DNA of 32,000 nt from Nanobdella aerobiophila (GCF_023169545.1 NZ_AP019769.1:360001-392000), one strand, 5' to 3'; shown: positions 5,399 through 29,147, counted from the first letter of the stretch. Numbers and translations are program-made. Notes: a model not told the origin generated them from the letters alone.

Positions 5399-5470
5399 AT
5401 TAAAATATTATTATATTATTTTAAAAAAGTAAAATTTCAAAGATTAAATAATTTGTAAAAATTTAGAACC

Positions 5471-5544
5471 CGGGCCCGGGGGGTTTCGAACCCCCGACCT
5501 TCGGGTTAAAAGCCCGACGCTCTACCATGCTGAGCTACGGACCC
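5471..5544 (-). tRNA. tRNA-Lys (anticodon UUU); no intron, CCA not encoded
   Basis: The reverse complement folds as a cloverleaf: acceptor GGGUCCG/CGGGCCC, anticodon arm UCGGG-CUUUUAA-CCCGA, T arm GGGGG-UUCGAAA-CCCCC, discriminator G. It is a GC-rich island in AT-rich DNA. Confidence 0.9.
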
Positions 5545-5581
5545 ACAACTAATAATTATTATTTATATAGTACATAAACTT

Positions 5582-6361
5582 TTAAGGATGTATCCAAAAG
5601 TTATATAGACCTAAAGAACGTACTTTATTAATTGCCTCTGAATATGATTCTAATGTACCTATATCAAACCAAAAACCCTCATTATAAGTATATGTTAATA
5701 GTTCTTCTTTCTTAAATTTTAAAATCCACTCAAATAGTTTACCTATCGAATCTTTATCCTTATTATTATTTATGTATTCATATAATAAACCCAATTTTTC
5801 TTTTGGTATATAATATATTCCAATGGATATTATGGTAGATATTGGATTCTCTGGTTTTTCATAAAATTCAACTATTTTATTGTTTTCGACCTTTAAAACT
5901 CCAAATCTCTTAGCATCTTCATTATTTTTTATATCATAAGATCCTAAGATGATCTTATCATAACCGACATCTAATAATCTTTTAATATCAAAATTAAATA
6001 AATTGTCACCAAGTACAACCAATAAATCTGAATTGATTTTTTGTTTATCTATTGTATAATGTAGACCTCCTATCGCGCCCAACTTATTTTCCTGAGAATT
6101 CGAAGGTTCTATAGATAGATCTATATTTACATCACCATAAAATGCTTTTAATGTTTTTAACCAATATTTAAAATGATTTTGAAATTTTTCATTTATAGAA
6201 ATAATTATAGAATTTGGATTTAATTCTAATATTTTGTTTAGAGTATAATTTAATATTGGTACTCCCTCTAATGGAAATAAAGGCTTTGGAATATAATCTG
6301 ACAACGGTCTTAGTCTCTTTGCATAACCACCAGCTAAGATAATACAATCTAGATTGTCCAT
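5582..6361 (-). CDS. Sugar-1-phosphate nucleotidyltransferase (NTP-transferase family)
   Basis: 259 aa. The N-terminal ILAGGYAKRLRPLSDYIPKPLFPL matches the G-x-G-x-R-L nucleotide-binding signature of RmlA/GlmU-type enzymes. Confidence 0.8.
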   Translation of the reverse strand: MDNLDCIILAGGYAKRLRPLSDYIPKPLFPLEGVPILNYTLNKILELNPNSIIISINEKFQNHFKYWLKTLKAFYGDVNIDLSIEPSNSQENKLGAIGGLHYTIDKQKINSDLLVVLGDNLFNFDIKRLLDVGYDKIILGSYDIKNNEDAKRFGVLKVENNKIVEFYEKPENPISTIISIGIYYIPKEKLGLLYEYINNNKDKDSIGKLFEWILKFKKEELLTYTYNEGFWFDIGTLESYSEAINKVRSLGLYNFWIHP

Positions 6362-6370
6362 ACAGATTTT

Positions 6371-7054
6371 TTAGCTATATAAATTTATATACTCTATTGA
6401 ATTATTTACATAGCTAAAATAACCTATCGATACTGTATTAGATGATATACCAAAAGATCTCTTAGTACCTATAATTCTATCCCCATTATATAGATCTAAT
6501 AATGATAAATAATTAGATAATATTATACTATTATAAGTTGAACTTATATTTATATTTCCATTTTGATATAGATATAAATCACAAAATAATAATGACCTGT
6601 AATATATACTATATATACTAATATTATAATAATTACTACAATATATACTTCCGTCGGATAAGCTATAATTTATATTATTGTTACTAAAAATAAAAAATGA
6701 TAAGAAGGATGTTATATTGCTATTAGAACTTTCATATATATTTATATAGCTGCCGGCATTATTATAATATATTTCTACACAGTTATTGCAGACATAATAA
6801 TTAGTAGATAAAAATATAACAGAGGGTGTATATGAGTATGAAAATGGTATTCCTGTAATATTATATATTTGATTTTCATTATAATTATTAGAGAAATAAA
6901 ATGAATCTAAATACAAACCCTGAAATTTTGATATATCAGATAAATAATTAGTATAAGAATTTAGTCCACTTATAAAATCAGTAAAAACATATATAAACAG
7001 GTATATAAATATTCCCAAAGTTAGTAATACCTCAATCCAACTTTGAGATTTCAT
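6371..7054 (-). CDS. Secreted N/Y/S-rich protein with a putative class III (type IV pilin-like) signal peptide
   Basis: 227 aa. The N-terminus MKSQSWIEVLLTLGIFIYLFIYVF resembles the MK(G)Q leaders of the three archaellin-type genes in this window. It has many N-x-S/T sequons and a 4-nt overlap with the upstream platform gene. Confidence 0.45.
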   Translation of the reverse strand: MKSQSWIEVLLTLGIFIYLFIYVFTDFISGLNSYTNYLSDISKFQGLYLDSFYFSNNYNENQIYNITGIPFSYSYTPSVIFLSTNYYVCNNCVEIYYNNAGSYINIYESSNSNITSFLSFFIFSNNNINYSLSDGSIYCSNYYNISIYSIYYRSLLFCDLYLYQNGNINISSTYNSIILSNYLSLLDLYNGDRIIGTKRSFGISSNTVSIGYFSYVNNSIEYINLYS

Positions 7055-8316
7055 ATCGTTACATTAATATACTCATCTTTATTATACAATTTACCCTGAT
7101 ATCTCATCTTTGCATCAACTAGATATTCTCCCGACTGATTAAATTCTGTAGAATAAGAATAAAATCCATTATTCAATATAAATACCTGTGTACTCTGATA
7201 ATTTGTATTAATCCCTACAATTGATAATGTTACTGGAACATTATTTAGAGGATTAGAATTAGCAGAGCCATAAATCTGTATAGTTATTGGATTATATATA
7301 TATGCATTTGTAGGATATATATCTAGAGTGAAATTTACTTTAGTAGGTAATATAAATATTATAACGGCAAGTAGCCCAATAAATACATTGATAGCTAAGT
7401 GTTTCATAGAGGTGGAGAACTTTCCTGATTCCGCTATACCTGATGTTATAGAAACAGATATTCCAACTAGTATTATAGATAGCCCTGAAATAAATTTTAA
7501 CCAACCATAATTTATCGAACTGGAGAATAAACTAAAAGAACTCTTGACAGTAGCAGCAATTAGTTGACTATTTATTAAAGGCTGTATGGTATTTAATATT
7601 GATATCATTAATCCTATAAATATCACATATATACTATATAATACCATAACTTGTTGAGAGACATAAGATTTTCTTAATTTATCTAGATCTCTGCTATTTT
7701 CTAAATCAGTATATATTCTTTTTAGAGATTTTGATAGATCTCCACCACCAATATAACTTTCTAATATTACATAATTTGTCCTTCTAATATCTGGTAAATC
7801 ATAAAAATATAAATTAAATAATGTAAAAGCCTTTTCAAATGGTAGGCCCCATTTTAGCCAACTATATAGTTTTCTTACATATCTAGATAAATATCCAAAA
7901 TCTAGATTCGATGTATAATTTAATGCATCTACAATTGACAATCCAGAAGATATACTATCAGATAATTGAGATAGAAAATATGGATAATTGTCTATAATGT
8001 TTTCATTAATCTTATCTTCCATATATTTATAAGCCATATATGGAGCCCCACCTACTAAATATACAACAATAATTAGTATAGATAAAGAGATATAATTTTC
8101 ATATAATCTAAATAGCAATCCAATAGTTAATATTAATAATGATCCTATGGTAGACAAGATCAATATTAACCTACTTTCCTTTATTTCCTTCCCCAGAAAT
8201 TTTATTTTTTTATAATTTTCTGGATCTGAGATATCAGGTATAATACCTAATTTATATAATAAATTAATTGATCTACTGGGCATCTTCCTATTATAATTTA
8301 AATTAATGGTTGGCAT
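7051..8316 (-). CDS. FlaJ/TadC-like platform protein half (single T2SSF domain) fused to a C-terminal Ig-like beta-sandwich domain
   Basis: 421 aa. T2SSF-like cytosolic domain: NYPYFLSQLSDSISSGLSIVDALNYTS...ILESYIGGGDLSKSLKRIYTDLE, flanked by TM spans. The last ~95 aa (about 7054-7340) look like a sequon-bearing beta-sandwich. An alternative ATG lies at 8283 (MPSRSINLLYKLGIIP). Confidence 0.7.
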   Translation of the reverse strand: MPTINLNYNRKMPSRSINLLYKLGIIPDISDPENYKKIKFLGKEIKESRLILILSTIGSLLILTIGLLFRLYENYISLSILIIVVYLVGGAPYMAYKYMEDKINENIIDNYPYFLSQLSDSISSGLSIVDALNYTSNLDFGYLSRYVRKLYSWLKWGLPFEKAFTLFNLYFYDLPDIRRTNYVILESYIGGGDLSKSLKRIYTDLENSRDLDKLRKSYVSQQVMVLYSIYVIFIGLMISILNTIQPLINSQLIAATVKSSFSLFSSSINYGWLKFISGLSIILVGISVSITSGIAESGKFSTSMKHLAINVFIGLLAVIIFILPTKVNFTLDIYPTNAYIYNPITIQIYGSANSNPLNNVPVTLSIVGINTNYQSTQVFILNNGFYSYSTEFNQSGEYLVDAKMRYQGKLYNKDEYINVTI

Positions 8317-8351
8317 TATATTTTTATTTTACAATTTTAATATTTAAATAT

Positions 8352-9197
8352 ATGACTAATATATTATATGAATTTTTTGATGGTATAGAAAAGGATTATT
8401 TAGCATCGGGCATGAATAAAAAATTAGAAAAATATATATCAGACTCTATACAATATTCTATAGTAATTGCTATATTTATTGGAGTATTATCTTTTATCTT
8501 TATATTAATTATATCAATAAAATTAATAAAACATATAATACCTTTTCTATTTATAGCTCCAATATTCTTAGCTATACTATCCTTCGCCGGTCTATTATAT
8601 TTATTCAAGATATATCCAAAATTTTTGAAAAATGAAAGAGAAAGAAAAATAGATAACTCTTTATATTTTGCTGTATTATATATGGCTTCCTTAACATCTT
8701 CTGGTGCAAATCCTAAAGTATTATTTGATTTATTATCAAAATACAAAGATTTTTCAGAGATACAAAAAGAATCTCAAAGAATAATATATTTAGTAGATGA
8801 TATTGGATTATCATTACCTGATGCATTAAAAAATAGAATAGATTACTCCCCATCAAAAAAATGGGCTTCTATATTAGAGGGAATTAGATCTATAATTATA
8901 GAAGGTGGAGATTTAGAATCTTATTTATATCAGCAAGTAGAAAAATTATATGAAGAATATAAAAGAAAGATTATAGAATATTCTGATAACTTACAAATAT
9001 TTTTGGAGATATATATTACCTTAATTGTAGTAGGTATAATATTCTTAATAATATTAACAACACTCATGGGATCTATAGCAAATACAAGTTTTCAGTCTAT
9101 AGAATCATTACAATTGATAAGTGTACTTACTATATTACCAATGGGTACATTAATGTTTATTATATTGATAAAATCTATGAACCCATTTGAGACGTAG
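8352..9197 (+). CDS. FlaJ/TadB-like platform protein half (single T2SSF domain)
   Basis: The ORF-track start at 8310 is a TTG, so I prefer the ATG at 8352 (MTNILYEFFDG). Domain: LYFAVLYMASLTSSGANPKVLFDLL...GLSLPDALKNRIDYSPSKKW...IIIEGGDLESYLYQQVEKL, followed by TM spans. It is the only plus-strand gene in a long minus-strand run. Confidence 0.7.
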   Translation: MTNILYEFFDGIEKDYLASGMNKKLEKYISDSIQYSIVIAIFIGVLSFIFILIISIKLIKHIIPFLFIAPIFLAILSFAGLLYLFKIYPKFLKNERERKIDNSLYFAVLYMASLTSSGANPKVLFDLLSKYKDFSEIQKESQRIIYLVDDIGLSLPDALKNRIDYSPSKKWASILEGIRSIIIEGGDLESYLYQQVEKLYEEYKRKIIEYSDNLQIFLEIYITLIVVGIIFLIILTTLMGSIANTSFQSIESLQLISVLTILPMGTLMFIILIKSMNPFET

Positions 9198-9849
9198 AGA
9201 TACTAGAATTATTAGAATATAGATTAATTATAATATTGGTTATATCTTGAACATTATAAACTTTAATATTCCCGGTTTCTAATCCATATTTTATTATATT
9301 TATCAAATTTTTGTTCTTATATTTTAAATCATATAATATTTGCTGCTCTATGTTATTTGACATATATATTGTTAATGTATCATTTATATTATTTAAATAA
9401 TCTGGAGGTATATTTATAATTCCAACATTAGTAAATGTATACGCAGCACAGGAGTGGTTCAAACATAATATAAACGAATATTTTGGGTATAATATATCTA
9501 CTTTATTTTCATATAATTCATAATTGTATCTTACAATACTATCATTCTCTATATAATAATCTATTTGTTTTATAAAAGATATAGATTGATTTCCATCAGA
9601 AAAATCTATATATCTATTATTATTCAATATGCCATTTATAGATATTAAAAATAAATCATATCCAGATATATTTAACTGATAATAATCTATAACTTCTGTA
9701 TTATTTTGAGTAATATTTGCTATAAATGGAAAGTTAAATGTATATACAGGATAAAAAAATAATCTATAGAATATTGAAGACGATATAACAAGTGCAGAAA
9801 ATACTATCAAAAAAATAATAATCTTGTTTTTAATATATGACCTCCTCAA
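9175..9849 (-). CDS. Signal-anchored N/Y-rich hypothetical protein
   Basis: 224 aa. N-terminal TM IIIFLIVFSALVISSSIF, then an Asn/Tyr-rich sequon-bearing ectodomain. The track start is a TTG and no nearby in-frame ATG exists, so the exact start is uncertain. It overlaps the ndk 3' end by 20 nt, and its 3' end overlaps the convergent 8352-9197 gene by 23 nt. Confidence 0.5.
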   Translation of the reverse strand: MRRSYIKNKIIIFLIVFSALVISSSIFYRLFFYPVYTFNFPFIANITQNNTEVIDYYQLNISGYDLFLISINGILNNNRYIDFSDGNQSISFIKQIDYYIENDSIVRYNYELYENKVDILYPKYSFILCLNHSCAAYTFTNVGIINIPPDYLNNINDTLTIYMSNNIEQQILYDLKYKNKNLINIIKYGLETGNIKVYNVQDITNIIINLYSNNSSISTSQMGS

Positions 9850-10950: not shown

Positions 10951-13900
10951 ATGCTATTAAACAAAAATAAAAATATCCTGATAGAGATAGTAATAATAAT
11001 ATTTATATTTCTATTTGCCCTAGGATCGAAAGGTTTACTGTTAGAGGCCTTACCCAACTATAGTCTAGTAGGACCAGATGCATATTATTTTTTCTATTAT
11101 TTTGAATACCTAATCGCACATCATACTATAAATAATTTAACTTTCCATTTATATTATCCATTGTACCAACCACTGGATAATAAAGATATGGTTTCTTATT
11201 TAAGTTATGTCTCATATATTTTATTCTCTAATCCTATAAGTTCTGGAATTATTGGATATTTACTAAACTTTTTAAATATACATCCTGCAGCCAATATAAC
11301 TATATGGTTGTCAGCGGACTTTACAAACGCATATGTACCAGCAATAGCTGCAATAATATTTTACTTCTTATCGAAAAGCATATTCAAAGATAGATACTTG
11401 GCATTATTATCAGCAATAGTATTTTCAATAAATCCATTTCTAACTACAAGACTCGTATTATACGATACTGAGCTTGGAGCTATAATATTTTTAGTAGCTT
11501 CTTTCTATCTAATTATAAAATATATTAAAGGAAAATCTGGAGAGAACATCTACAAGAAAATTGGACTACTATCATACTCTATAGTAGCATTAATAATATT
11601 TTATTATACCTCAATTATGCCAAATTATGATGTACTAATAACTATAGAATTATTTGCATTCTTAGCTGGATTACTATTATTATATCCTCTATTCAAAGGG
11701 ACAAGAGAGTACTACTTAACATTACTGATATTTACAACAGCTTTGACAAGAAAAGGATGGGGAGGATGGATTATAATCCCTATGACATTCGGATTATATG
11801 GCATCCTAGCATATGTACTTAATAAAGATACTAGCGATATGTATTTTTTCTTACCTTATATGGGTTTTACAGGGGTACTAGATTCTGAACTAAATATTCA
11901 TTTATTTTTAGCAGATCATAATATACTATTTGAGCTCGGATTAATATTACCATATCTTTATGCAATATTAAGAAAAGTAGATATATTTAATAGATCAATA
12001 TTTAATAAGCTAGATAAATACTCTGAGAACTTGAGTAGATTCTCTTTAATATTAATCTTATTCATAATTGCATCACCAATAATAGCATCTAAAGTTATCG
12101 GAGAATTCTTAATAAATCCATTTACAGCCTCAAGAATGGGATCTACAATAGCAGAATTTCAGTCTACACCAGCATCATATTATTTCCAATTATTCTCTCC
12201 AGTAGGTGTATTATTTGCCTACCTGGGTCTAGGTTATCTGATATTTGATAAAACAAAACCAGCAATATATACTTATATAGAATTTATATTTCTATTCTTA
12301 TTAGTTGGATTAGAGATAGTTTTAGGATCATCAGTTGGCATCTTATTATTTATGTTAATTATATTTATTGTATCTATATTCAATATAAATAAAAATAAAA
12401 AAGAACTAAGATATAAATTGCAATCAATATTCGAAATTTCTACATTATCTATTGCAATGTATATGATTGTATTTACAGATATAGTATTAAATGGACAATA
12501 TATAAGTATATTCTTCTCATGGATGATATTTTTCGTATTTATAGTACCTTACATATTACTATATAGAAAAGATATGGAAGATTATGAATTATTTATACTA
12601 TCACTAAGCTTTTTAACAATAATAGTTGGAAAATATATATATGAGCTAGTTTATTATGCAGGATTAGCAGTACCTTTCTTGTTTATATATGGCATTAAAG
12701 TTATAGATATATTTAAACCATATTATGAAAAATTAAAAACTAATGTAAAAGAATACTTAAATTTAATATTATTATTAATAGTAGCTATATCAGGTATATC
12801 CATTAGTATATTTACAAAGATACCAGTTATAGGAATTCTACCTGCTGCATTCTTTATATTATACTTATTATATGAATTTATATTAGATAAAAAAATAGAA
12901 GATATAAATACATTAAAATATGCTATAATATTATTATCATTCTATGGTATATCAATAGGATTAAGTAATAATATTTATGGGGCTCTTGGCTATATACAAA
13001 ATTATTTTATACCATTATCAACACAAGGTACGCCAGGATACGAAATATCTGCATTTACATGGATAGCCCAAAATACCCCTATAGATTCTATAATAAATTC
13101 CTGGTGGGACTATGGTTATTACATATTTACAGTTGCAAATAGAACTGCATGGATAGATGGATCTAATTCATACCCATATTGGAATCATTTGATGGGCAGA
13201 TATGGATTATCATCTGATAATATTACAAAAACTCTTCAGTTATTTTATGTACATGCAGATTATAATTATCAGACATTTAAGACATTAGAATTATTCAATG
13301 AGAATCAAGTATTTTATGACGATATATATACTAATCTAGGATTTACAGAGCAACAAGTAAGAGAGATAGAACAGCTAAAAAATATGATTGGATACAAAAA
13401 TTGGATAAAATTACTATACGAGTATAATGGAACTAATGAATCTGTATTAAACTTCAATCTATCAACAACAGACCTATATTTATTAAATAAATTATATAAT
13501 ATGAATTATCTAAGACCAGCATATTTGTATATAGACCCAACAGATATAGGTAAATCATTCGCATTTCAATTTTTAGGATCAAATGAAACATATGATAAAG
13601 AGTCGTGGATATCACAATTTGAATCTGGAACAAATACAAATCCCGGACCACAAATACCATCTATATATTACAATGGATACTATGTATTCGCACAAAATAA
13701 TAGTTTATACTTCTTTGGAGAGATGCCATTAGATCAAAATTTAGATATAAATGGGACAATAATTCAGAGTTGTATATATGAACAAAATCTAGGTATAGTA
13801 AATCAGAATTCTTGTGGAGTCGTAAATGCGGTTCAAATAGTATTTAATAATTCTTTAGTAGAACAATCAGGACTGTATCAAAGCTTAAATGTATCTAAAA

Positions 13901-14418
13901 TAACACCAAATGATATACAGAGCGCATATGTATATATACTAGATCCTATAAATAATCAAAACTACAGATTATCATTACAATATGTAGATCTAGATGGTCA
14001 GTTACTAAACTTTTCAAATGCACAATACGGAGGAATGCTATATATATCACCAACCCTATCCTTACTAGAACAAAATAACCAAGTAGGATCATTCCTATAC
14101 GCATATATGATATCACAAAAGGCATTTAAATATGATTGGGTACAATTATATTTCCTAAATAATTCTTATAATGGTCTATTTAATCTAGATTTTTATAGCA
14201 ACCAGTATTTACAATTACAGAATGGAATAACAATAAGCTTACCACCAATAGTATACTCTGATGTAGCACCTTCAAAAGTTTGGCAAATAAATTTCCCACA
14301 GAACTTTACAGTACCAGACAGTTTATATTGCATATATCTTGCACAAAACTTACAACAGATAAATGAATGCGCTCAGATATATAATTTAACACCATACACA
14401 AATTATTACAATGTATAA
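10951..14418 (+). CDS. aglB: Archaeal oligosaccharyltransferase AglB (STT3 family)
   Basis: 1155 aa polytopic N-terminal half. It has the WWDYG motif (tgg tgg gac tat ggt at 13102-13116, aa 718-722), acidic-loop motifs VGPDAYYF and YDTELG, and a large soluble C-terminal domain. Confidence 0.9.
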   Translation: MLLNKNKNILIEIVIIIFIFLFALGSKGLLLEALPNYSLVGPDAYYFFYYFEYLIAHHTINNLTFHLYYPLYQPLDNKDMVSYLSYVSYILFSNPISSGIIGYLLNFLNIHPAANITIWLSADFTNAYVPAIAAIIFYFLSKSIFKDRYLALLSAIVFSINPFLTTRLVLYDTELGAIIFLVASFYLIIKYIKGKSGENIYKKIGLLSYSIVALIIFYYTSIMPNYDVLITIELFAFLAGLLLLYPLFKGTREYYLTLLIFTTALTRKGWGGWIIIPMTFGLYGILAYVLNKDTSDMYFFLPYMGFTGVLDSELNIHLFLADHNILFELGLILPYLYAILRKVDIFNRSIFNKLDKYSENLSRFSLILILFIIASPIIASKVIGEFLINPFTASRMGSTIAEFQSTPASYYFQLFSPVGVLFAYLGLGYLIFDKTKPAIYTYIEFIFLFLLVGLEIVLGSSVGILLFMLIIFIVSIFNINKNKKELRYKLQSIFEISTLSIAMYMIVFTDIVLNGQYISIFFSWMIFFVFIVPYILLYRKDMEDYELFILSLSFLTIIVGKYIYELVYYAGLAVPFLFIYGIKVIDIFKPYYEKLKTNVKEYLNLILLLIVAISGISISIFTKIPVIGILPAAFFILYLLYEFILDKKIEDINTLKYAIILLSFYGISIGLSNNIYGALGYIQNYFIPLSTQGTPGYEISAFTWIAQNTPIDSIINSWWDYGYYIFTVANRTAWIDGSNSYPYWNHLMGRYGLSSDNITKTLQLFYVHADYNYQTFKTLELFNENQVFYDDIYTNLGFTEQQVREIEQLKNMIGYKNWIKLLYEYNGTNESVLNFNLSTTDLYLLNKLYNMNYLRPAYLYIDPTDIGKSFAFQFLGSNETYDKESWISQFESGTNTNPGPQIPSIYYNGYYVFAQNNSLYFFGEMPLDQNLDINGTIIQSCIYEQNLGIVNQNSCGVVNAVQIVFNNSLVEQSGLYQSLNVSKITPNDIQSAYVYILDPINNQNYRLSLQYVDLDGQLLNFSNAQYGGMLYISPTLSLLEQNNQVGSFLYAYMISQKAFKYDWVQLYFLNNSYNGLFNLDFYSNQYLQLQNGITISLPPIVYSDVAPSKVWQINFPQNFTVPDSLYCIYLAQNLQQINECAQIYNLTPYTNYYNV

Positions 14419-15424
14419 TTTTCTTAATCTATTATTAGCTATAGTTCCAGGAATTATAACATTCTTAGTATCATATTTTTTAATAAGAAAATGGATAAAT
14501 ATTGCTAAAAAAACAAATTATCTGGGAAAGGATATGAATAAGTACGAAAAACCATTAGTAGCAGAAATTGGAGGATTATATAGCATTATAGGTATTATAT
14601 TTGGAATTTTAATATACATAGGATTAAAAGTATATATATTTAATACAAATTATGATCTAGTAGATGTATTTGCAATACTAACAATATTGTCTTTAGTAAC
14701 TATAATAGGACTATTTGATGATATATTAGGATGGAAGAAAGGATTGAAACCCTGGGAAAAACCATTATTAACATTTATACTAGCTTTACCATTGATTATA
14801 ATATCTGCCGGCAATCCATATATGCAAGTTCCATTTATAGGCATTATAAATCTTGGATTATTATATCCATTATTTATAGTACCTATAATTATTATGGGAA
14901 CATCTAATGGTTTTAATATGCTTGCCGGTTACAATGGTTTAGAAGCATCATTAGGTGGAATAATATTGTTTATATTAGGAGTTAAATTATATATGATAGG
15001 TCAGTATTATCTATCAGAGATTGCCTTAATATCTTTATTTGGTATCCTCGCATTCTTAATATTCAATTGGTATCCATCAAAAGTATTTCCAGGAAATTCA
15101 TTTACATATGGTATTGGTGCCCTATTTGGAACCTTGGTAATATTAGGTAATCTAGAACAATTAGGATTTATATTATTTATACCATATTTCATTGAATTAA
15201 TATTATTCATAAGAGGATTATTAAACCATGTATATAAAGAAAATTTTGGAATACCAAATGAAAAAAATGAGCTAAATGAACCATATAAAAAGGTATACAG
15301 TTTAACTCATCTTGCTATAAAATTAGATAAAAAAATATTTAAAAGAGCAACAGAAAAATCTGTAGTATTCACTATAATATTTATAGAAATATTATTTTCT
15401 ATATTAGGAATATTATATGGATAA
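14411..15424 (+). CDS. Polyprenyl/dolichyl-phosphate N-acetylhexosamine-1-phosphate transferase (GT4 MraY/WecA/GPT family, AglH-like)
   Basis: 337 aa polytopic protein. Motifs GLFDDILGWKKG and NGFNMLAGYNGLE are typical of the family. It overlaps aglB by 8 nt. Confidence 0.8.
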   Translation: MYNFLNLLLAIVPGIITFLVSYFLIRKWINIAKKTNYLGKDMNKYEKPLVAEIGGLYSIIGIIFGILIYIGLKVYIFNTNYDLVDVFAILTILSLVTIIGLFDDILGWKKGLKPWEKPLLTFILALPLIIISAGNPYMQVPFIGIINLGLLYPLFIVPIIIMGTSNGFNMLAGYNGLEASLGGIILFILGVKLYMIGQYYLSEIALISLFGILAFLIFNWYPSKVFPGNSFTYGIGALFGTLVILGNLEQLGFILFIPYFIELILFIRGLLNHVYKENFGIPNEKNELNEPYKKVYSLTHLAIKLDKKIFKRATEKSVVFTIIFIEILFSILGILYG

Positions 15425-17186
15425 AATAGTATATATTTATGAAAAAAAAGATAAAGACAAATTCTTAGATAATTTTCATCTTTTATATAGTTTATCTAAA
15501 AAAAATAGGCTAGAATTAATATGTATAATACATAAAAGTTTTAGGAATATTGCTATTAAATTAAAAGAGAATCACAATGTTAGATTTTACCTAATAAACA
15601 ATAAAAAGGATATAAATAAAATAAAAATTTATGGTAAAAAAATAATTATATATAATGAGATAAACTTTAATATAAAAAATATAAATGATATACTAAAAAA
15701 TATAGAAAAAAATAAAATATTAATAGTTAAAAACAAGTTTATTAATAAAAAAATAATAAATAAGTATATAATAGGTAAAGAAGAAGAAAAATTAAATTAT
15801 AATTTTTTAATAGAATATTATAGATATAATAAAAAATATTTTCTAGATAATTATAACTTTAAATTTAATATAATAAAATTAATTAATATCAATATATTTA
15901 TTTATATAAAAAAAATACTAAAACTAATAGAAAAGATACTGAGTAGAAAATTTATTAGCGATTATATACACGAAAAAACAGGACTACTATCATATAAATT
16001 TTTATCATTAGTTACAACAATAGTTTTAGTTAGATTATTGACAGTAAGTTATTATGGAGAGTATATAACAATATATAATTTCTTATTAATAGTTTCTGGA
16101 TTCATAGGTTCTTCAAATATTATACTAACCAAAAGTTTGGTAGAAAGTAATAACAAAAGCTACATTGAGATTGATATAATAGTAAAAATATTATTTACTA
16201 TGATAGCTGGAATGATTATAATAATTTTACTTCCTTATATATCAAAATATGTATTTTATAGCTATAATTTATATTCTATATTCTTAATATTTTTAGCAGC
16301 AATATTTTTATCATTAGAGGGTCTAGGAATAAGTATACTATATTCTTATTTAAACTTCAAAGACTCAAAATATATAACAATTATAGAAGGTCTATCTAAA
16401 TTTATATTAATTATATCCTTAACCATAATATATAAAAATTATGGATTTATAATTGGATTACCAATTGCTTTCTTTCTAACTGACCTATATATATTATACT
16501 ATTTTAGAAGGACTAAAGTCAAAATAAATATAGATATTTACGAAATTATAAAAAATAGTGGTAATAAAATAAAAGGATATTTAAAAAATATATTATATAT
16601 AAGTCTACCTCCATTATTATTTAATTTATATACAAGCTTTGATATACAAATATTAAGAATATTTACATCATTTCAAGATGTAGGATATTTTTATAATGCA
16701 ATATTAATTGTATCAACATTGTCTAATATATTATCTATATCAAGTATATCTCTACCAAGAATATTAAGATGGAAAAAAGAAGAAATATCTAGAAATATTC
16801 CCAAATTGATAATAGCTCAATTAATAATAAACATAATTATATATTTTACATTATTTCTAACTGGAAAATATATTATAATATTACTATATGGAAAAGGATA
16901 TTTATTATCCGCAGAATTGATAAAGTATCTTGGAATAATTTTTATAATTCAAAGTTTTAATATATTTAGTTTAATATTATATAAAGCCGGACTAGAAAAA
17001 TATTATGGTATATATACTGTATCTGTATCTTTACTTTCTATAGTTTATGACTTATTATTAATACCAAGATTTAGATTAGATGGTGCAATAGCTGCTGCAA
17101 TATTATCAAATTTAACAAACATATTAATAGCTTTCTATATATATAAAACTAAATATGATAACATCACTCCCAGACCTGTTTATTGA
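15417..17186 (+). CDS. MOP-superfamily (Wzx/AglR-like) oligosaccharide flippase with a ~175-aa K/N-rich N-terminal extension
   Basis: 589 aa. From about aa 178 onward there are ~12 hydrophobic spans with Wzx-like organisation. aa 1-175 are soluble and low-complexity. It overlaps the upstream gene by 8 nt. Confidence 0.6.
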   Translation: MDKIVYIYEKKDKDKFLDNFHLLYSLSKKNRLELICIIHKSFRNIAIKLKENHNVRFYLINNKKDINKIKIYGKKIIIYNEINFNIKNINDILKNIEKNKILIVKNKFINKKIINKYIIGKEEEKLNYNFLIEYYRYNKKYFLDNYNFKFNIIKLININIFIYIKKILKLIEKILSRKFISDYIHEKTGLLSYKFLSLVTTIVLVRLLTVSYYGEYITIYNFLLIVSGFIGSSNIILTKSLVESNNKSYIEIDIIVKILFTMIAGMIIIILLPYISKYVFYSYNLYSIFLIFLAAIFLSLEGLGISILYSYLNFKDSKYITIIEGLSKFILIISLTIIYKNYGFIIGLPIAFFLTDLYILYYFRRTKVKINIDIYEIIKNSGNKIKGYLKNILYISLPPLLFNLYTSFDIQILRIFTSFQDVGYFYNAILIVSTLSNILSISSISLPRILRWKKEEISRNIPKLIIAQLIINIIIYFTLFLTGKYIIILLYGKGYLLSAELIKYLGIIFIIQSFNIFSLILYKAGLEKYYGIYTVSVSLLSIVYDLLLIPRFRLDGAIAAAILSNLTNILIAFYIYKTKYDNITPRPVY

Positions 17187-21236: not shown

Positions 21237-22088
21237 TCAGCTTCCTCCTAAAGATACTACAGAATCTGCCAAAACGGTAGGTATAGCACCTCCGTATTGG
21301 GCGGCATATCCATTTACTGGAGTTATTTGTAAATTATAATTTTCATCAGTAACTAATCCGGATGGTATATAATATATTAATTCGTAATTCTCTCCTGTAG
21401 TTAAATATACGCTTTCCTGATTTACTGCTAATCCAATTACTGCATATGGATCTTGTATTCCTGCTTCATTCATAGATTGCAAGAACTGGAATACCTGACT
21501 TATAGATAGTGGAACTCCAATAACTGAACTATTTATATTAATAGAACATGAAGATAAAGTATTATTTATATAACTAAAATTAATATATATATACTGATTT
21601 GATATATTTGTTAAAGTATTACATATATTTGTATTATTTATAGTAACATTTTCTACATTAACCTGATCATTGTACATAAATCCAGATATTAATATACTTC
21701 CACCCTCCAGAACACCATATATAGATGTTGGTTCATAATTTGATGGAGAGTATGAATAAACATTACCATTACTGGTGGTTAATAATGAATCTACCTCTTC
21801 TAGATTTATTGGACCAGAACCTGGCATTAATGATACAACAGGACCCATACCTGTAATTTCTTGTAGATAATTATCTAACTGTCCAGTATTTGGATTATAT
21901 TGGTATCCAAACATCTGGGTTATCTGCATTCCAGTTGTAATTCTACTTTCTGCTTGCTGTCCTGTCTGTAATGCTTTTGCTTGTAATGCACTTGCTGTAT
22001 ATATTACAACTCCTGCTGCCACTGCCGCTGTTACTATAATTGCTATTAATATTATTAATGTCGATAGACCAAACTGACCCTTTGCCAT
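21237..22088 (-). CDS. flaB: Archaellin (FlaB/ArlB family)
   Basis: 283 aa. Class III signal peptide MAKGQ followed by FGLSTLIILIAIIVTAAVAAGVVIY, then ALQAKALQTGQQAESRITTGMQI. Internal V.L.PGSGPINL and a C-terminal ITPVNG pattern are typical of archaellins. Confidence 0.8.
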   Translation of the reverse strand: MAKGQFGLSTLIILIAIIVTAAVAAGVVIYTASALQAKALQTGQQAESRITTGMQITQMFGYQYNPNTGQLDNYLQEITGMGPVVSLMPGSGPINLEEVDSLLTTSNGNVYSYSPSNYEPTSIYGVLEGGSILISGFMYNDQVNVENVTINNTNICNTLTNISNQYIYINFSYINNTLSSCSININSSVIGVPLSISQVFQFLQSMNEAGIQDPYAVIGLAVNQESVYLTTGENYELIYYIPSGLVTDENYNLQITPVNGYAAQYGGAIPTVLADSVVSLGGS

Positions 22089-23274: not shown

Positions 23275-23561
23275 TATATAATATATGATATTGCAAATGA
23301 ATACAATATTAAAATAGATAAAATTATATTATTTGGATCTAGAGCTAGGGAGATTATAGAGGAAATTCGGATTATGATATATTAATTTTAATAGATGAAG
23401 AACTAAAATCAAGAGAAAAAATAAATTTTTGATATGAAATATATAAAAGAATACCATTTCCAGTAGATATAATCATAGTATCAAAAAATATATTCGAAAA
23501 ATACAAGGACTCCTATAGATATATTTATAAATATGCGATAAATGAAGGAATAAAAATATGA
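23275..23561 (+). pseudogene. Decayed minimal nucleotidyltransferase (MNT, antitoxin-type) gene
   Basis: It reads ...KIILFGSRAR, then a frameshift near 23350, then DYRGNSDYDILILIDEELKSREKINF. An in-frame TGA follows at 23430-23432, then YEIYKRIPFPVDIIIVSK...NEGIKI and the stop at 23559-23561. No start codon or N-terminus remains. Confidence 0.7.
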
Positions 23562-23940
23562 AAGAAAGATACTCATAACTAGATAAAGAAAGTAGATACT
23601 GATCTAGAGATATGTAAAAAATTATATAAAGAAAAATATTATGATTATCCAAGATATCTCGCTCAACAATCAGTAGAGGAATATTTAAAGGCGTTTTTAA
23701 TAGAAAATAATATAGATTATCCAAAAACTCTTGATATAAAGCAACTAATAAAAATATGCAAGGATATTAATAAAGATTTTGAATACTTATATAAAATTTA
23801 TGTAGATAAGTTGACTATATATTCTACCGAAACAAGATATCAAGAATATGATTTTATTTTTAATGAAGAAGATGCTAGAAACGATAGATATTGCTAAAAA
23901 AGTTAGGGAATTCATATATAAAAAATTAAATATAAAGTGA
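23558..23940 (+). pseudogene. Decayed HEPN-domain (toxin-type) gene paired with the MNT remnant
   Basis: The ATG at 23558 overlaps the MNT stop (ATGA), but that frame stops after 6 codons. The body, in another frame, has a TAG at 23580-23582 and then reads VDTDLEICKKLYKEKYYDYPRYLAQQSVEEYLKAFL...ETRYQEY. The tail ETIDIAKKVREFIYKKLNIK is in a third frame. Confidence 0.65.
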
Positions 23941-24266
23941 AGGTATTTATTTTTTAATTATAAAATGTAATAAAAATATATATAAATATTGGAAAATTAG
24001 GAAGAATAAAGTTTGGACCTGGTTATTATATTTATATAGAATCTGCATTAAATAATTTAAAAAAAAAGAATTCAAAGACATTTAAAGAAAAATAAGAAAG
24101 TACATCAGCATATTGATTACCTAACAACAAATGAAAACTTTAAAATAATAGAAGTTTATTACATTAAAACAAATGAAAAAAATTGAATGTAAGATATCAA
24201 GAATTTGGAAATTTTGATTGTAAAGGTAATTCACATTTATTTTATTCTAAAAATTTGAAAAAATAG
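23936..24266 (+). pseudogene. Decayed DUF123 / GIY-YIG (Uri-superfamily) endonuclease-like gene
   Basis: Fragments lie in three frames: GIYFLIIKCNKNIY; INIGKLGRIKFGPGYYIYIESALNNLKK; RIQRHLKKNKKVHQHIDYL...; EFGNFDCKGNSHLFYS. One frame change coincides with an A9 run at 24059-24067. Confidence 0.6.
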
Positions 24267-24272
24267 AAAAAA

Positions 24273-27200
24273 TTATGAATAATACAATGCATAAATACCA
24301 AAACCGGATGGACTAAATGTATTATTTGTAGATATTATATTTCCTGAACCTCCTACTATCTTTTCTATTATATAATTACCTGTAGGTATATTTGTAAATG
24401 TAATATTAGCATTTAATGACCCTATTAATAATATTCCAGAAGCAAAGTTATATTGTATAGTATTATTTATTATTGAACTTGCAAAACTATTTGCATTATT
24501 AATAAATCCTGAACCTATATAATTTATATCAATAGTTCCTGTTGATACAGTTAAATTATTTATAGTTCCATTATTATTTATAGCTACACCTAACTGTGAA
24601 TTATAATCATATATATTTGATGCATTACCATATATATTAAGTCCGAATATTCCTCCATATGCTGTAACATTATTAATATAATTATTATTTGTTTCATATA
24701 ATCCAAATACAGATCCTACTTTTATTAAATCATTTAATATATAATTATTTCCTGATCCTAAATCTATACCAAATATATTACTATCAATATTATTATTTTC
24801 TATATAATTATTATATCCATTATTTAATTTTATACCAAATATATTACTATCAACATTATTATTATTTATCGTATTATTTATCGCATTTCCATCTAAATCT
24901 ATACCAAATATATTCGCATTAATATTATTATTATTTATTATAATATTTTCTGGATTATTATCATATATACCCCACACACTTGATTGTATATTTGAATTCT
25001 CTATTGTAGAATTCTGGAATGTACCTGTTCCATATATTGCTCCTATATTTCCATTTATTGTACTATTATATATATTTAATATTGATGGATTTTCTACTTG
25101 TATACCAAATAATCCAGAATTTATATTTGAATTATATATATTTACTGTTCCATTTGTTAATCTTAATGCAAATAAATTAGTTTGTATATTTATATTAGTT
25201 ATATTTACATTTGAAGATTCTATATTTATTACAGGTAGTCCTGGATTAGCAGGCTCAAATAGTACATTTCCAGATCCTAATAATTCTATATTTTTACCTT
25301 GTGGATTTATATTTAAATTAACTAAATATATTCCTTGAGGGAATACTACAATTGGTATATTATTATTTATTGATCCTTGTATTATATTATTTATTTGATT
25401 ATTAGTTAATGAATTATTTATTACAGTTATATTTTGTGAATTAGGAGAGAAATATATAACTTGTTCTGGAGTTATATTATATAATCCATAATTATTATAT
25501 CCATATATTCTATAATATAATTGATAATATTGTCCATTATATTTAGAATATTCTTGTAATAAACCATTATAAAATACATCATTACATTCTGTAGAACTAG
25601 ATATAGTTACCCATTGATTATTTGATTGATTCAAGAATTGTATATTACAATAATCTATACCTTCTGTATTATCATATACATTTCCATATATTTGTAATAA
25701 CCATAGATTACTTATATATCCATTACTTGGAGTTGGAGATGTATATGATACATTAAATACAGGTTCAGGTAATTGATAGATATATATTCCTGTACTATTT
25801 ACAATATTATTATAAGATTCTGTAGATAATTCTATGCTAATATTTCCTCCATTTGGTATAATATTATATAATGAAGGTAGTCCATTTGATGAATTATTAT
25901 ATCTTAAATATATATTATTTATTCCTGGAGTTACATTTATATTATATTTATTTCCATTAATTGTTATATTTACATTTGGATAATTTGTATAGAATGTTAA
26001 ATTTAATCCATAATAATTACTTTTAGTATTATTATTTGGAGATATAATATATATAATAGGATATGGATATACATTTAATGTAAATATTGAAATATTTGAT
26101 AGTCCTGTTACTTGGTCTATTCCTAAAAATGTTATATTGTATTGTTGATAACTATTTACATTCGGAGCAGTTATTGTAAATATTTGACTTCCTCCAGAAG
26201 TAATATTAACTTCTGCTGGAGAGCATGTAACACTTGATGGAGACAAACATCTTAGTGTTAAATTATTTCCTAAATTATCTGTTCCAGATACTTGTATAGA
26301 TATTGACTGTCCTGAATTTAAATTTCCAGATGTCTGATTAAGTGCTATATTTATATTTTCTATCACTACTGTAACATTTACTTGTGTTTTATTTGTTACT
26401 ATATCTGTTGCAGTAACATTTATTATATACAATCCTTGAGATGCTGAACTTGGTACAGATATATCTAAACTTGTAGAACCTCCTGAAGGGATTATTACAC
26501 TATTTTGCCCACTAAAGGAGCATGATAATGGGGAAGGACAAGAAGCACTTATATTTAAATTATCTCCATAATTATCTGAAGCTGTTATAATAGTTGAACT
26601 ATTTGAACCTGGTGATAAAGTAATAGAGGATGGATTAGAGCTTACATTAATTAATTCTTGTGGAACATTTACCGTTATTGTTGTAGAATTTGTTGCATTA
26701 TTCTCAGATATTCCATTTATTGTCACTGTATAAGTACCCGGTGTTATTGATGTTGTTGAATTTATATATAATGTTACTGTTGTATTTGGAGTTGCTGTAT
26801 TATTTGAAAGATAACATCCTAAATTAGTATTTGAAGTTGAACAAGACAAATTTACTGGTAAAGGTGTATTTCCAGTTAGTTGAGTTAATTGTATATTATC
26901 TGTTATTGTTTTACCTGGTATTTCGGTAATTAGATTACTAGAAGGTATCAATTCGAATGTAAATACTGGAAAAGCATATACAAATACTGAAGCATAGTTT
27001 GTTGTACCTGGTCCACCAACATTTGCATCAAAAGTAAAAGAATAGGATCCTGGAGCTAAATCTTGACATCCCGCAGCATATACTGCATTATTAGGATTAT
27101 TAGCAGGACCTGCTTCTTCATAATTTATTTCTGAACACCCAGCAGGTAAAGTTACAGTAGTTATACCAGCCTGTCCATTATTACTTCCAGCAGCTAATAA

Positions 27201-27671
27201 TATAAATACAGTTTCATTTTGTCCATTTACATTAAAAGATACAGATTGTGTAGCACTTTTTCTAAAATTAAATGTTAAATTATCTAATATTAGATATTGA
27301 GAATAATTATTTATAGTTAATCCAATTAATGCATTATTTCCATTTCCTGCTGGACCTCCTCGATTAAATGTATATGAACATGAATTTTGTGTATTATTAC
27401 CTATAACTGAATATCCACTATTATCTACTAATATATTAAAGTATGGAACTATAGTACTTCCACCATTTACAGAAGCTGTACAATAATATAGATTTCCTAA
27501 AGGTAAATTAACACTCACTGAATTAGATCCTGGTCCAGGGTTTGCATTTGTTCCATTATATCCAACTAATGTTGCTCCTACGGCAGAGAATACACTATTT
27601 ACAGAAAAAATAGAGAGTATAGATAAAATAACTAGTATATATATTTTTTTTATTAAGAATTTATATACCAT
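24273..27671 (-). CDS. Large secreted surface protein: Sec signal, unknown N-terminal domain, three Cys-pair Ig-like repeats, beta-sandwich region, right-handed parallel beta-helix (PbH1-type) region; no recognisable membrane anchor
   Basis: 1132 aa. Signal MVYKFLIKKIYILVILSILSIFSVNSVFSA. About 100-aa repeats each carry a Cys pair (LSCSTSNTNLGCY, ASCPSPLSCSF, LRCLSPSSVTCSP). 22-23-aa coils carry NIFGI(D/K)L and G(I/L)FG motifs between about aa 765 and 1010. I hand-counted about 47 N-x-S/T sequons. Confidence 0.8.
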   Translation of the reverse strand: MVYKFLIKKIYILVILSILSIFSVNSVFSAVGATLVGYNGTNANPGPGSNSVSVNLPLGNLYYCTASVNGGSTIVPYFNILVDNSGYSVIGNNTQNSCSYTFNRGGPAGNGNNALIGLTINNYSQYLILDNLTFNFRKSATQSVSFNVNGQNETVFILLAAGSNNGQAGITTVTLPAGCSEINYEEAGPANNPNNAVYAAGCQDLAPGSYSFTFDANVGGPGTTNYASVFVYAFPVFTFELIPSSNLITEIPGKTITDNIQLTQLTGNTPLPVNLSCSTSNTNLGCYLSNNTATPNTTVTLYINSTTSITPGTYTVTINGISENNATNSTTITVNVPQELINVSSNPSSITLSPGSNSSTIITASDNYGDNLNISASCPSPLSCSFSGQNSVIIPSGGSTSLDISVPSSASQGLYIINVTATDIVTNKTQVNVTVVIENINIALNQTSGNLNSGQSISIQVSGTDNLGNNLTLRCLSPSSVTCSPAEVNITSGGSQIFTITAPNVNSYQQYNITFLGIDQVTGLSNISIFTLNVYPYPIIYIISPNNNTKSNYYGLNLTFYTNYPNVNITINGNKYNINVTPGINNIYLRYNNSSNGLPSLYNIIPNGGNISIELSTESYNNIVNSTGIYIYQLPEPVFNVSYTSPTPSNGYISNLWLLQIYGNVYDNTEGIDYCNIQFLNQSNNQWVTISSSTECNDVFYNGLLQEYSKYNGQYYQLYYRIYGYNNYGLYNITPEQVIYFSPNSQNITVINNSLTNNQINNIIQGSINNNIPIVVFPQGIYLVNLNINPQGKNIELLGSGNVLFEPANPGLPVINIESSNVNITNINIQTNLFALRLTNGTVNIYNSNINSGLFGIQVENPSILNIYNSTINGNIGAIYGTGTFQNSTIENSNIQSSVWGIYDNNPENIIINNNNINANIFGIDLDGNAINNTINNNNVDSNIFGIKLNNGYNNYIENNNIDSNIFGIDLGSGNNYILNDLIKVGSVFGLYETNNNYINNVTAYGGIFGLNIYGNASNIYDYNSQLGVAINNNGTINNLTVSTGTIDINYIGSGFINNANSFASSIINNTIQYNFASGILLIGSLNANITFTNIPTGNYIIEKIVGGSGNIISTNNTFSPSGFGIYALYYS
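24759..24932 (-). repeat. Intragenic tandem repeat (66/69-nt period) encoding consecutive beta-helix coils
   Basis: The plus-strand core TATACCAAATATATTACTATCAA(T/C)ATTATTATT occurs at 24765 and 24831 with 1 mismatch. A more diverged copy lies at 24900. CTAAATCTATACCAAATATATT is identical before copies 1 and 3. Confidence 0.7.
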
Positions 27672-27772
27672 TAGATAAAAAATACTTTATTATTAAAAAG
27701 AGTTTATTCAACATAATTAATTTACTATGTTGATAATCAATAAAGATTTAGGATAAAATAAGCTAAAAAAAT

Positions 27773-28390
27773 TTATTGTAAGGATGAAGTTCCGCCTAGA
27801 GAACTACAAGATGCATAACCTGTAGCTGGATTTACAGAACACTCCATTATATCTAATTGCTGTGTAGGTGATATTATTAATCTCACACCCATCTCTAAAT
27901 TAGATGTTGAATATTGTATTGTTTGATTCAAACATGTAGATAATAGAGTCACATTAACCTCTGCAACTGTTTGAGCAGGTATTGCTTGTCCATATGATAA
28001 TGTCTGATTTGTATTATAATCATATACACTTGTAGATATCTCTGTAGCCAATGATGGATTATTAGCTAGATTAGCAAACAATACAGGTACTGAACAAAAT
28101 ACATCACCATTTTGATCTGTAAAATCTAATGTCCATCCACTTAATGGTATATTTGTAGATCCTAAATTATATAATACGAATGATAATGTAGCAACCGTAC
28201 CAAATTCTGAATATTGTACATCATGAATCGCAAATTGAGGAATTTCAGATTGTTGTTGAGTTAAATCTAATTTTGCTAATGATAAATTTGAATTTTTTAA
28301 GTAAATATTAACTAAAGCATAACTTGCTATTGTTGCTATGGCAACCAAAAATATAAAAAGAAATAAATTTTGAAAAGCTTGCCCTTTCAT
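27773..28390 (-). CDS. Archaellin-related / FlaF-FlaG-like protein with a class III signal peptide
   Basis: 205 aa. MKGQ followed by AFQNLFLFIFLVAIATIASYALV, then a beta-rich domain (TLSFVLYNLGSTNIPLSGWTL). It starts 1 nt after the upstream archaellin stop. Confidence 0.6.
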   Translation of the reverse strand: MKGQAFQNLFLFIFLVAIATIASYALVNIYLKNSNLSLAKLDLTQQQSEIPQFAIHDVQYSEFGTVATLSFVLYNLGSTNIPLSGWTLDFTDQNGDVFCSVPVLFANLANNPSLATEISTSVYDYNTNQTLSYGQAIPAQTVAEVNVTLLSTCLNQTIQYSTSNLEMGVRLIISPTQQLDIMECSVNPATGYASCSSLGGTSSLQ

Positions 28391-28391
28391 C

Positions 28392-28982
28392 TTATCCGTA
28401 TAATATTACTACTGGATATATCATTGCAGCTGGTGTTACACCTGATAAATCATATGGTTGTCCATTTGGTGGAATTACTGATATTTCCCATGTTTGTGAA
28501 GTTCCTAATGTTACATTAGAATATACTAATAATGCACCTAGATCATTTGGACCCAATACTCCATTATATAATAATCCTGAATTATCTACAGAATCATGTT
28601 CATCAATATAATAGTCCCCAGTATATGATGTTACTAGCGATGAATTTGCTATTGCACCACCATATGCAAATACTTCTCTTCCAGCTGGAGTATATAGTAT
28701 TAATGATGTTTGATTTAATAATATTGGTTGTGATCCTGGTGCTAATCTTGTATATACTAAGTATTCTTGAACTTGTTGTGTTGTTGTATTTACATTTATG
28801 CCTTCTACCCTTACAATCTCTACTGTAGTTCCAGATGTTTGCACTGTTTGTTGCGCTGCTGCTGCTGCATGTCCTTGTGCACTTGTTGTTGCTCCTATAA
28901 TTACAAATGCCGCTATTGCTGCTGTTAATGCTGCTGCTATAAATAAAACCATAGACGAAAAACCTGTACCTTGACCCTTCAT
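28392..28982 (-). CDS. flaB: Archaellin (FlaB/ArlB family)
   Basis: 196 aa. MKGQ followed by GTGFSSMVLFIAAALTAAIAAFVIIG, then QQTVQTSGTTVEIVRVEG, LAPGSQPILLNQTSL and the C-terminal ISVIPPNG pattern. Confidence 0.75.
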   Translation of the reverse strand: MKGQGTGFSSMVLFIAAALTAAIAAFVIIGATTSAQGHAAAAAQQTVQTSGTTVEIVRVEGINVNTTTQQVQEYLVYTRLAPGSQPILLNQTSLILYTPAGREVFAYGGAIANSSLVTSYTGDYYIDEHDSVDNSGLLYNGVLGPNDLGALLVYSNVTLGTSQTWEISVIPPNGQPYDLSGVTPAAMIYPVVILYG

Positions 28983-29038
28983 TTAATATAAAAAATCTCT
29001 ATTATTTATATATATTTGCTAATCAATATTGATTATTA

Positions 29039-29113
29039 TGCCCCCGCCGGGATTTGAACCCGGGTCATAGGGACGAAAACCCTATATCCTGGACCAGACT
29101 AGACGACAGGGGC
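29039..29113 (-). tRNA. tRNA-Glu (anticodon UUC); contiguous, no intron, CCA not encoded
   Basis: Reverse complement: GCCCCUG...UAGGG-UUUUCGU-CCCUA-UGAC-CCGGG-UUCAAAU-CCCGG-CGGGGGC-A. Confidence 0.9.
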
Positions 29114-29147
29114 AATAAGATTAAATTCTATATATCTATTTAAAAAT

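Follow-up and report, generated by a model that had tools for sequence, protein, structure and literature searches.

Nanobdella aerobiophila MJ1 is a cultured thermoacidophilic nanoarchaeon whose host is Metallosphaera sedula. Three pectin lyase-like extracellular proteins, MJ1_0451, MJ1_0701 and MJ1_0776, were described in it by Kato et al. (2023; bioRxiv 10.1101/2023.10.27.564410), and that preprint gives them 36–52 N-glycosylation sites, 1–8 immunoglobulin (Ig) folds and a parallel beta-helix. It is proposed there that these proteins degrade the glycosylated wall of the host and play a role in symbiosis, and MJ1_0451 is placed among "other cell surface proteins". The present analysis concerns a stretch of 32,000 nucleotides (nt) of the MJ1 genome (GCF_023169545.1, NZ_AP019769.1:360001-392000; G+C about 25%), called the window below, in which positions 24,273–28,982 hold two archaellin-type genes and the gene of a protein of 1132 amino acids (aa), called BIG here, that is 100% identical to MJ1_0451. 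That is to say, BIG has already been published as a "pectin lyase-like" surface protein, and its fold and glycosylation features as reported agree with those found here. The archaellin linkage, the neighbouring gene MJ1_0452, the promoter palindrome, the variability of the Ig and N-terminal regions and the absence of catalytic residues are not taken up in that text; moreover, Kato et al. favour glycan degradation, whereas the present analysis favours binding.

Two further bodies of work bear on the family. In Nanopusillus, the orthologue Nps_01900 was listed by Wurch et al. as an "uncharacterized secreted protein" (arCOG06957). In Nanobdella, Gaisin et al. (2024) showed that free cells swim with 9-nm archaella, which are corrugated in their proximal segment and sporadically bear thorn-like densities, and that cells, once attached, construct an attachment organelle of several parts; no molecular assignment exists for any of these structures.

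Outside the family, the phage tailspike and tail-fibre proteins are among the nearest in build: they are elongated multi-domain proteins with a right-handed beta-helix and Ig-like domains, and one of their ends is swapped while the other is conserved, as in BIG. Their glycan-recognising beta-helix can be likened to that of BIG; the viral fold matches of BIG include a phage pectin-lyase-fold protein and tail proteins, at template-modelling scores below 0.25 that are driven by the Ig array. They differ in that no trimerisation or particle-binding domain was identified in BIG, and in that its variable end is N-terminal and its conserved end C-terminal, the reverse of typical tailspikes. The SPEARE, lectin-domain and pectin-lyase-domain proteins of Ca. 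Nanohaloarchaeum antarcticus, proposed for host recognition in another DPANN archaeon, embody the same concept, with Ig folds and with lectin or pectin-lyase domains that would bind glycans of the host when the cells first meet; no sequence homology between them and BIG was detected.

SlaA-type S-layer proteins share with BIG the predicted Sec export, N-glycosylation, richness in Ig folds, lack of a transmembrane anchor and retention by a partner. The original prediction, made from the DNA sequence of the window, had offered as its alternative that BIG is the S-layer or major envelope protein, and the size, predicted glycosylation, Ig content and missing C-terminal transmembrane segment of BIG would all suit such a role. 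This alternative is nevertheless hardly credible. In the MJ1 transcriptome, as published by Kato et al., the first rank belongs to MJ1_0160, the proposed S-layer protein, and rank 12 to MJ1_0707, its anchor; orthologues of both are present in YN1 according to the paper on that organism, and the predicted S-layer protein of N. acidilobi is a different gene, Nps760. BIG is not the top-expressed gene, its beta-helix core and variable repeat number are atypical of SlaA-type proteins, and a number of domains that changes from strain to strain is hard to square with a fixed lattice.

As read here, BIG would be a Sec-exported, N-glycosylated and non-covalently retained glycan-binding protein of the host contact, separately transcribed and probably co-regulated with the archaellum, a reading to which we give a probability of roughly 0.55. 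The three open reading frames (ORFs) of the locus all lie on the minus strand: gene 1 (g1, MJ1_0453; 196 aa) at 28392–28982, gene 2 (g2, MJ1_0452; 205 aa) at 27773–28390, and BIG at 24273–27671, with 1 nt between gene 1 and gene 2 and 101 nt between gene 2 and BIG. The coordinates, shared orientation and gaps of the original prediction were all reproduced by these ORF calls.

BIG is built as follows, with all positions on the minus strand: a signal (residues 1–30, 27582–27671), an N-terminal beta domain (31–236, 26964–27581), three Ig domains (Ig1–3; 237–537, 26061–26963), two beta-sandwich domains (D4–D5; 538–752, 25416–26060), a capping helix with the beta-helix (753–1050, 24522–25415) and a C-terminal segment (1051–1132, 24276–24521). 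An AlphaFold2 (AF2) model made with a 19-sequence family alignment reached a mean predicted local distance difference test score (pLDDT) of 74.5. It contains a signal helix (residues 2–24), an all-beta N-terminal region (33–235, pLDDT 65–80), three Ig-like domains (238–535, pLDDT 80–88), two more beta-sandwich domains (540–740), a capping helix (757–769) and a beta-helix whose short strands stand in register (774–1050), where the block-mean pLDDT is mostly 80–94 up to about residue 1020 and falls to 57–75 by 1050; the tail (1050–1132) is modelled with low confidence. The Ig domains carry Cys pairs at 277/286, 378/384 and 475/483. The repeat relation is genuine for Ig2 and Ig3 (34% identity, z 14.6) and weaker for Ig1. 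Between residues 834 and 1027 there are ten coils of about 22 residues with a motif of the [FW]G[IL] type ([FW/IL]-G/A-[ILVA]), and together with the model they place the C-terminal region in the predicted right-handed parallel beta-helix, or PbH1/pectin lyase, fold. The layout originally proposed, from signal through Ig stalk and beta-sandwiches to the beta-helix, including the three Ig repeats with a Cys pair each, is thus upheld by sequence and model alike.

Judged by its sequence, the signal is of the Sec type and not of class III (pilin-type), so that BIG would be exported via Sec and its signal peptide cut (…VFS/AV). The sole hydrophobic segment lies within residues 1–36, as 19-residue windows starting at positions 1–18; no hydrophobic window occurs beyond these N-terminal ~36 residues, and neither a C-terminal transmembrane helix nor a sorting signal such as PGF-CTERM was found, which agrees with the missing anchor of the original prediction. 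A C-terminal anchor is absent from all 19 homologues examined, and the C-terminus …GFGxYxLFYS is kept in all full-length ones. Since there is no membrane anchor, BIG would be held non-covalently on the envelope or released.

The composition of BIG also points outside the cell. It contains no more than 19 Lys and Arg residues in all, and only 6% of its residues are charged, against 25–31% in the cytoplasmic neighbours, as would be expected of an extracellular protein of an acidophile. The N-x-S/T sequons number 47, exactly as had been counted by hand (about 47), and their density is 4.2 per 100 aa against 0.3–0.7 in the cytoplasmic proteins of the window, that is, 6–10 times higher. Shuffled sequences of the same composition (N 17.8%, S+T 19.1%) already give 37±5 sequons, so the density is mostly compositional, with an excess of about 2 standard deviations. 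Heavy N-glycosylation would be carried out by AglB, whose gene (10951–14418) lies about 10 kb from BIG, as originally noted. This gene (1155 aa) belongs to a surface glycosylation cluster at 10951–17186 on the plus strand, which also includes a GT4-family glycosyltransferase (Pfam Glycos_transf_4) and a polysaccharide flippase-like protein; the cluster is syntenic across all relatives and shares one neighbourhood of about 30 kb with three archaellin-type genes and a split arlJ.

Whether the beta-helix cleaves glycans or binds them is the point on which the present reading departs from the published one. According to Kato et al., the pectin-lyase-fold domain would be enzymatic, depolymerising the S-layer glycans of the host and opening the contact site. 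Polysaccharide lyases, GH28 enzymes and the depolymerases of phage tailspikes do indeed fold as right-handed beta-helices, and the phage matches described above point the same way. No Pfam family matches BIG itself; PF13229 (Beta_helix) matches 6 of the 19 homologues (best E 1.1e-9), where members checked singly score 23–25 bits against a gathering threshold (GA) of 25.9. Profiles of the beta-helix and of the whole family, searched against the sequences of the PDB, gave only a GH110 alpha-galactosidase at E 0.13 and weak PKD and NCAM Ig matches, that is, no significant match to a solved enzyme. Two other Pfam families were considered for the homologues and rejected: PF02465 (FliD_N; 14 of 19, best E 8e-9) arises by summing short partial matches to the Ig repeats, no single stretch of which passes, and PF14524 (Wzt_C) is the same artefact inside the Ig domains.

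The conservation of charged residues speaks against catalysis. The conserved charges of the beta-helix are confined to D927 (acidic in 100%) and K948 (basic in 94%), E806 and D981 reaching 89%, and no catalytic constellation of the lyase or GH28 type (an Asp/Glu cluster with an Arg/Lys base or a Ca2+ site) is conserved there. The helix thus has one invariant acidic position, and its other invariants are structural (I, N, G, F, Y). Over seven diverse sequences, the invariant positions of BIG are all I, N, G, F, Y, L, V, S, W, P, T or A. Conserved charges are most closely grouped in D5 (D667, D673, D698, K710 and R721). Because the constellation is missing, binding is preferred over catalysis, and the enzymatic reading, though the most serious competitor, is considered unlikely. 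The conserved core of two beta-sandwich domains, PbH1-type helix and short tail would then most likely bind glycans instead of cleaving them.

The outer parts of the protein vary as the core does not. D4, D5, the helix and the tail are 56–71% identical across the family, and the number of Ig repeats ranges from 1 to 4, giving lengths of about 905, 1008, 1109–1132 and 1209–1219 aa. In some strains a wholly different N-terminal region of about 530–550 aa, followed by one Ig repeat only, stands at the same locus of the Nanopusillus type. N. acidilobi and N. stetteri also have this variant type, as a further paralogue (the cases together: metagenome loci L025 and L028; P0015, P0016 and P0018; L008 and L014), and this double occurrence suggests that the N-terminal module is exchanged like a cassette. 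The N-terminal end is the strain-variable one and probably faces the host, and the variable module together with the stalk of 1–4 Ig repeats would adapt reach and specificity for host recognition and adhesion. Outside Nanopusillaceae and Nanobdella-type genomes the family itself (arCOG06957) was not found. This variability and the lack of a conserved catalytic signature are new refinements of the published description.

The same variability bears on a structural role. MJ1_0451 could be a part of the attachment organelle, forming the repetitive cone that takes the place of the S-layer where the cells touch; the organelle is without a molecular assignment, and BIG is large, secreted, without an anchor of its own and conserved in YN1, where a similar organelle occurs. 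The case is purely circumstantial, and a changing Ig number with swapped N-terminal modules suits receptor binding better than lattice formation, so this role is considered improbable.

Upstream of BIG stand the two archaellin-type genes. Gene 1 is the major archaellin, a canonical ArlB member, as the original prediction had it: it scores 72.7 bits against PF01917 (GA 29.5) over profile positions 3–158 of 162, and it matches archaellins with solved filament structures (5z1l, E 2.5e-6; 5o4u, 4.1e-6; 7ofq, 9e-6). Its class-III-type N-terminus MKG/QGTGF… (MKG/QGTGFSSMVLFIAAALTAAIAAF), with a hydrophobic peak at residues 5–35, is a predicted class III signal peptide and helix. In Kato et al., MJ1_0453 holds rank 2 of the MJ1 transcriptome, and MJ1_0449 is named an ArlB homologue; the latter is a third archaellin-type gene of the same cluster (21237–22088, minus strand, 283 aa; PF01917, 66.7 bits), situated beyond the tRNA methyltransferase gene.

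Gene 2 resembles ArlB, ArlF and ArlG in its MKGQ N-terminus, its hydrophobic helix and its beta-sandwich, and its AF2 model (mean pLDDT 72) contains a helix at residues 3–33 followed by the sandwich. It differs from them in its matches. The PF01917 match (25.3 bits, E 2.2e-5) is near full-length and stays below the GA; the local archaellin profile, compared by hhalign, gives a probability of 63% (E 7e-5), limited to the N-terminal ~100 residues. No archaellum model in NCBIfam, NF052591 for ArlG included, has a match among 14 family members. A sequence search of the PDB gave no match, and a Foldseek search of the model gave a best E of 3.5e-3, none below 1e-3, with no archaellin among the top 50 and no fold match to the ArlF or ArlG structures. 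Thus the "archaellin/FlaF-G-like" label first given to it is justified as to architecture, its likeness to ArlF and ArlG is not demonstrable, and its membership in the archaellin or ArlF/ArlG families is unproven. The family is small (9 cluster representatives among 1.84 billion); its MKGQ start and four Cys are invariant, and in all genomes examined it comes right after gene 1, either 1 nt away or overlapping it. Gene 2 is therefore a lineage-specific, obligatory archaellin-like partner of the major archaellin, translationally coupled to it, and the two would form a bicistronic unit conserved throughout the family.

BIG would form a second unit. The original prediction had spoken of "one block" in which the archaellin genes "feed directly into" BIG; this is interpretation and not observation, and the signals in the DNA, together with the 101-nt gap and the separation of the genes in one clade (see below), oppose it. 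Directly after the gene 2 stop codon there is a run of seven T (27765–27771, minus strand), a candidate archaeal terminator, and the T-run in this place is conserved whatever gene comes next. Ahead of BIG stand two TATA-like A/T boxes on the minus strand, TAAATTAATTA at 27714–27724 and TTTTTAATAATAAAG at 27685–27699, which are candidate promoters, and a block ACTCTTTT(T)A(A/T)T upstream of BIG is conserved in MJ1, YN1 and Nanopusillaceae KM4331-08. Directly after the BIG stop, runs of six, six and five T at 24247–24272 (minus strand) form another candidate terminator. In the genomes of the second gene arrangement, described below, a tRNA-Lys gene lies between BIG and its upstream gene. Taken together, the T-runs on both sides, the TATA-like boxes and the intervening tRNA argue for BIG being a transcription unit of its own with its own promoter.

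The two units are connected by a palindromic 12-mer, ATTGAT-N-A-N-CAA (ATTGATTAnCAA), which is a new finding. The window has two exact copies against 0.4 expected. One of them, ATTGATTAGCAA at 29016–29027, abuts the TATA-like ATATATATAAAT at 29004–29015 in the promoter of gene 1, on the minus strand between the tRNA-Glu gene (29038–29114) and the ATG; the other, ATTGATTATCAA at 27730–27741 on the minus strand, stands 59–70 nt upstream of the BIG start codon, a position it also occupies in YN1 and KM4331-08. In 292 kb of related loci the 12-mer occurs 12 times, where 4.3±1.7 sites would be expected; besides the two in the window, sites lie at L004 8621 and 9918, L010 (KM4331-08) 8537 and 9867, L020 6734 and 11660, L017 5361, L018 3000 and L019 22. 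Ten of the 12 are in promoters, namely those of gene 1 (in 6 of 6 genomes), of BIG (in MJ1, YN1 and KM4331-08) and of a second archaellin (in L020), and the other two are one orthologous position within SufB. The 12-mer thus marks archaellin promoters in Nanopusillaceae and Nanobdella-type genomes alike, and it looks like a candidate operator, for a regulator of the archaellum, that BIG shares in Nanobdella-type genomes. BIG synthesis would therefore probably be coordinated with archaellum production in the motile, host-seeking stage. That free cells are motile by archaella and must find hosts (Gaisin et al. 2024) counts in favour of this.

The history of the locus, also new, can be followed through two arrangements. 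In arrangement A the order is tRNA-Glu, gene 1, gene 2 and BIG; it occurs in MJ1, YN1, KM4331-08 and locus L020, the most divergent full-length relative (BIG 46%, gene 1 38% and SufB 65% identical). In L020 a second archaellin gene stands after BIG, with that of a nucleoside-diphosphate (NDP)-sugar pyrophosphorylase behind it, so that archaellins flank BIG on both sides. In arrangement B the order is split arlJ, p227, tRNA-Lys, BIG, NDP-sugar pyrophosphorylase and aIF5B; N. acidilobi, N. stetteri and every Nanopusillus-type locus, whether from a genome or a metagenome, have it. This is the Nanopusillus/Nanobsidianus clade, where genes 1 and 2 adjoin a methyltransferase with a 39-nt gap and BIG lies about 18 genes off. 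Because the divergent L020 forms a bridge between the two arrangements, A is probably the ancestral state and B a derived one; the idea that archaellin adjacency is a recent accident specific to Nanobdella was dropped after this locus. The linkage of BIG to the archaellins appears to be old but dispensable, since the B clade keeps the two apart and has lost neither.

For the original prediction this history cuts both ways. The association of archaellins with BIG stands in the order of four lineages and fails in the whole Nanopusillus/Nanobsidianus clade. A large protein encoded away from archaellin genes and forming a regular S-layer lattice had been named as contrary evidence; the separate location is seen in the B clade, and the lattice is not. 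The role in host attachment is plausible and was independently proposed by Kato et al., while the filament-coupled module is only partly supported. In its strong form, such a module would be an archaellum that carries MJ1_0451 as an adhesin, for example as the thorn-like densities, with MJ1_0452 as adaptor or minor subunit. Several observations suit it: archaellin adjacency is probably ancestral, with archaellins on both sides of BIG in L020; the relocated BIG of the Nanopusillus clade again adjoins the split arlJ and p227; the promoter palindrome is common to BIG and archaellin genes; and the thorns and the corrugated proximal segment have no molecular identity yet. However, the signal of BIG appears Sec-type and not class III, a whole clade has split BIG from genes 1 and 2 without losing either, p227 has no detectable similarity to archaellins, and a second BIG paralogue, in N. 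acidilobi, is surrounded by housekeeping genes (those of FtsZ, FKBP and ribosomal proteins). A filament-mounted BIG is therefore regarded as doubtful.

The preferred reading of BIG as a separately transcribed, glycan-binding host-contact protein has its own difficulties. Neither L020 nor any B-type genome has the 12-mer upstream of BIG, so co-regulation with the archaellum is not family-wide. The orthologue Nps_01900 was not among the proteins detected by proteomics in N. acidilobi, although detection is difficult for glycosylated proteins that contain little Lys and Arg. Finally, the conserved Asp/Lys pair of the beta-helix could still serve an unconventional active site.

Some neighbouring genes deserve mention. 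arlJ (flaJ) is split in the window into a C-terminal half (7051–8316, minus strand) and an N-terminal half (8310–9197, plus strand), which diverge and share 7 nt at their 5′ ends. One T2SSF domain falls in each half, and the split and its orientation are conserved in all relatives examined; Wurch et al. annotated the halves as two TadC genes. The split gene is flanked by the genes of two conserved proteins, p227 (6371–7054, minus strand) and p224 (9175–9849, minus strand), each with a single N-terminal hydrophobic segment and neither matching Pfam above threshold. p227, the gene upstream of tRNA-Lys and BIG in Nanopusillus-type genomes, overlaps the C-terminal half of arlJ by 4 nt; it starts with MKSQSWIEVLL… (pilin-like, Glu at +5) and has an extracellular-type charge content of 7.9%. 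In spite of this N-terminus it was rejected as an archaellin relative, the archaellin profile giving a probability of 0.1%.

Gene order around tRNA-Lys (5470–5545 in the window, with neighbours at 5582–6361 and 3738–5398) differs by clade, as a comparison with L006 and L020 shows: in MJ1, tRNA-Lys and aIF5B are separated by a pair of ABC transporter genes, and p227 has the NDP-sugar pyrophosphorylase as its neighbour across a 9-nt gap, and in Nanopusillus the order is tRNA-Lys, BIG, pyrophosphorylase and aIF5B. Downstream of BIG, the otherwise empty gap of about 960 nt is explained by a decayed MNT-HEPN toxin–antitoxin pair (about 23317–23897, plus strand) between the tRNA methyltransferase gene and BIG. 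Its nucleotidyltransferase frame is broken by a frameshift and stop codons (after conceptual repair, PF01909 E 4e-11 and PF18765 E 2e-12) and is followed by a HEPN domain (PF05168, E 6e-16). The pair may mark a rearrangement-prone spot.

MJ1_0451 is one of a handful of published candidates for the means by which ectosymbionts of the DPANN and Nanobdellota recognise and grip their hosts. A bolder idea, which we rate as a long shot, is that MJ1_0451 is a member of an archaellum regulon whose mark is the palindrome (ATTGATTAnCAA), is made in the free-swimming stage only and acts as a host-capture device, maybe mounted on the filament as the thorns through MJ1_0452. If this were true, no host-recognition protein of a nanoarchaeon would have been identified at the molecular level before it, and its archaellum would be the first to double as an adhesin carrier by way of a Sec-exported passenger. 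Apart from this, the candidate is sharpened by the present analysis: BIG would be a unit of its own that is possibly switched on jointly with the major archaellin, its variable N-terminus would face the host, and it would be a binder more probably than an enzyme. Since the organism is cultured with its host, these predictions are directly checkable.

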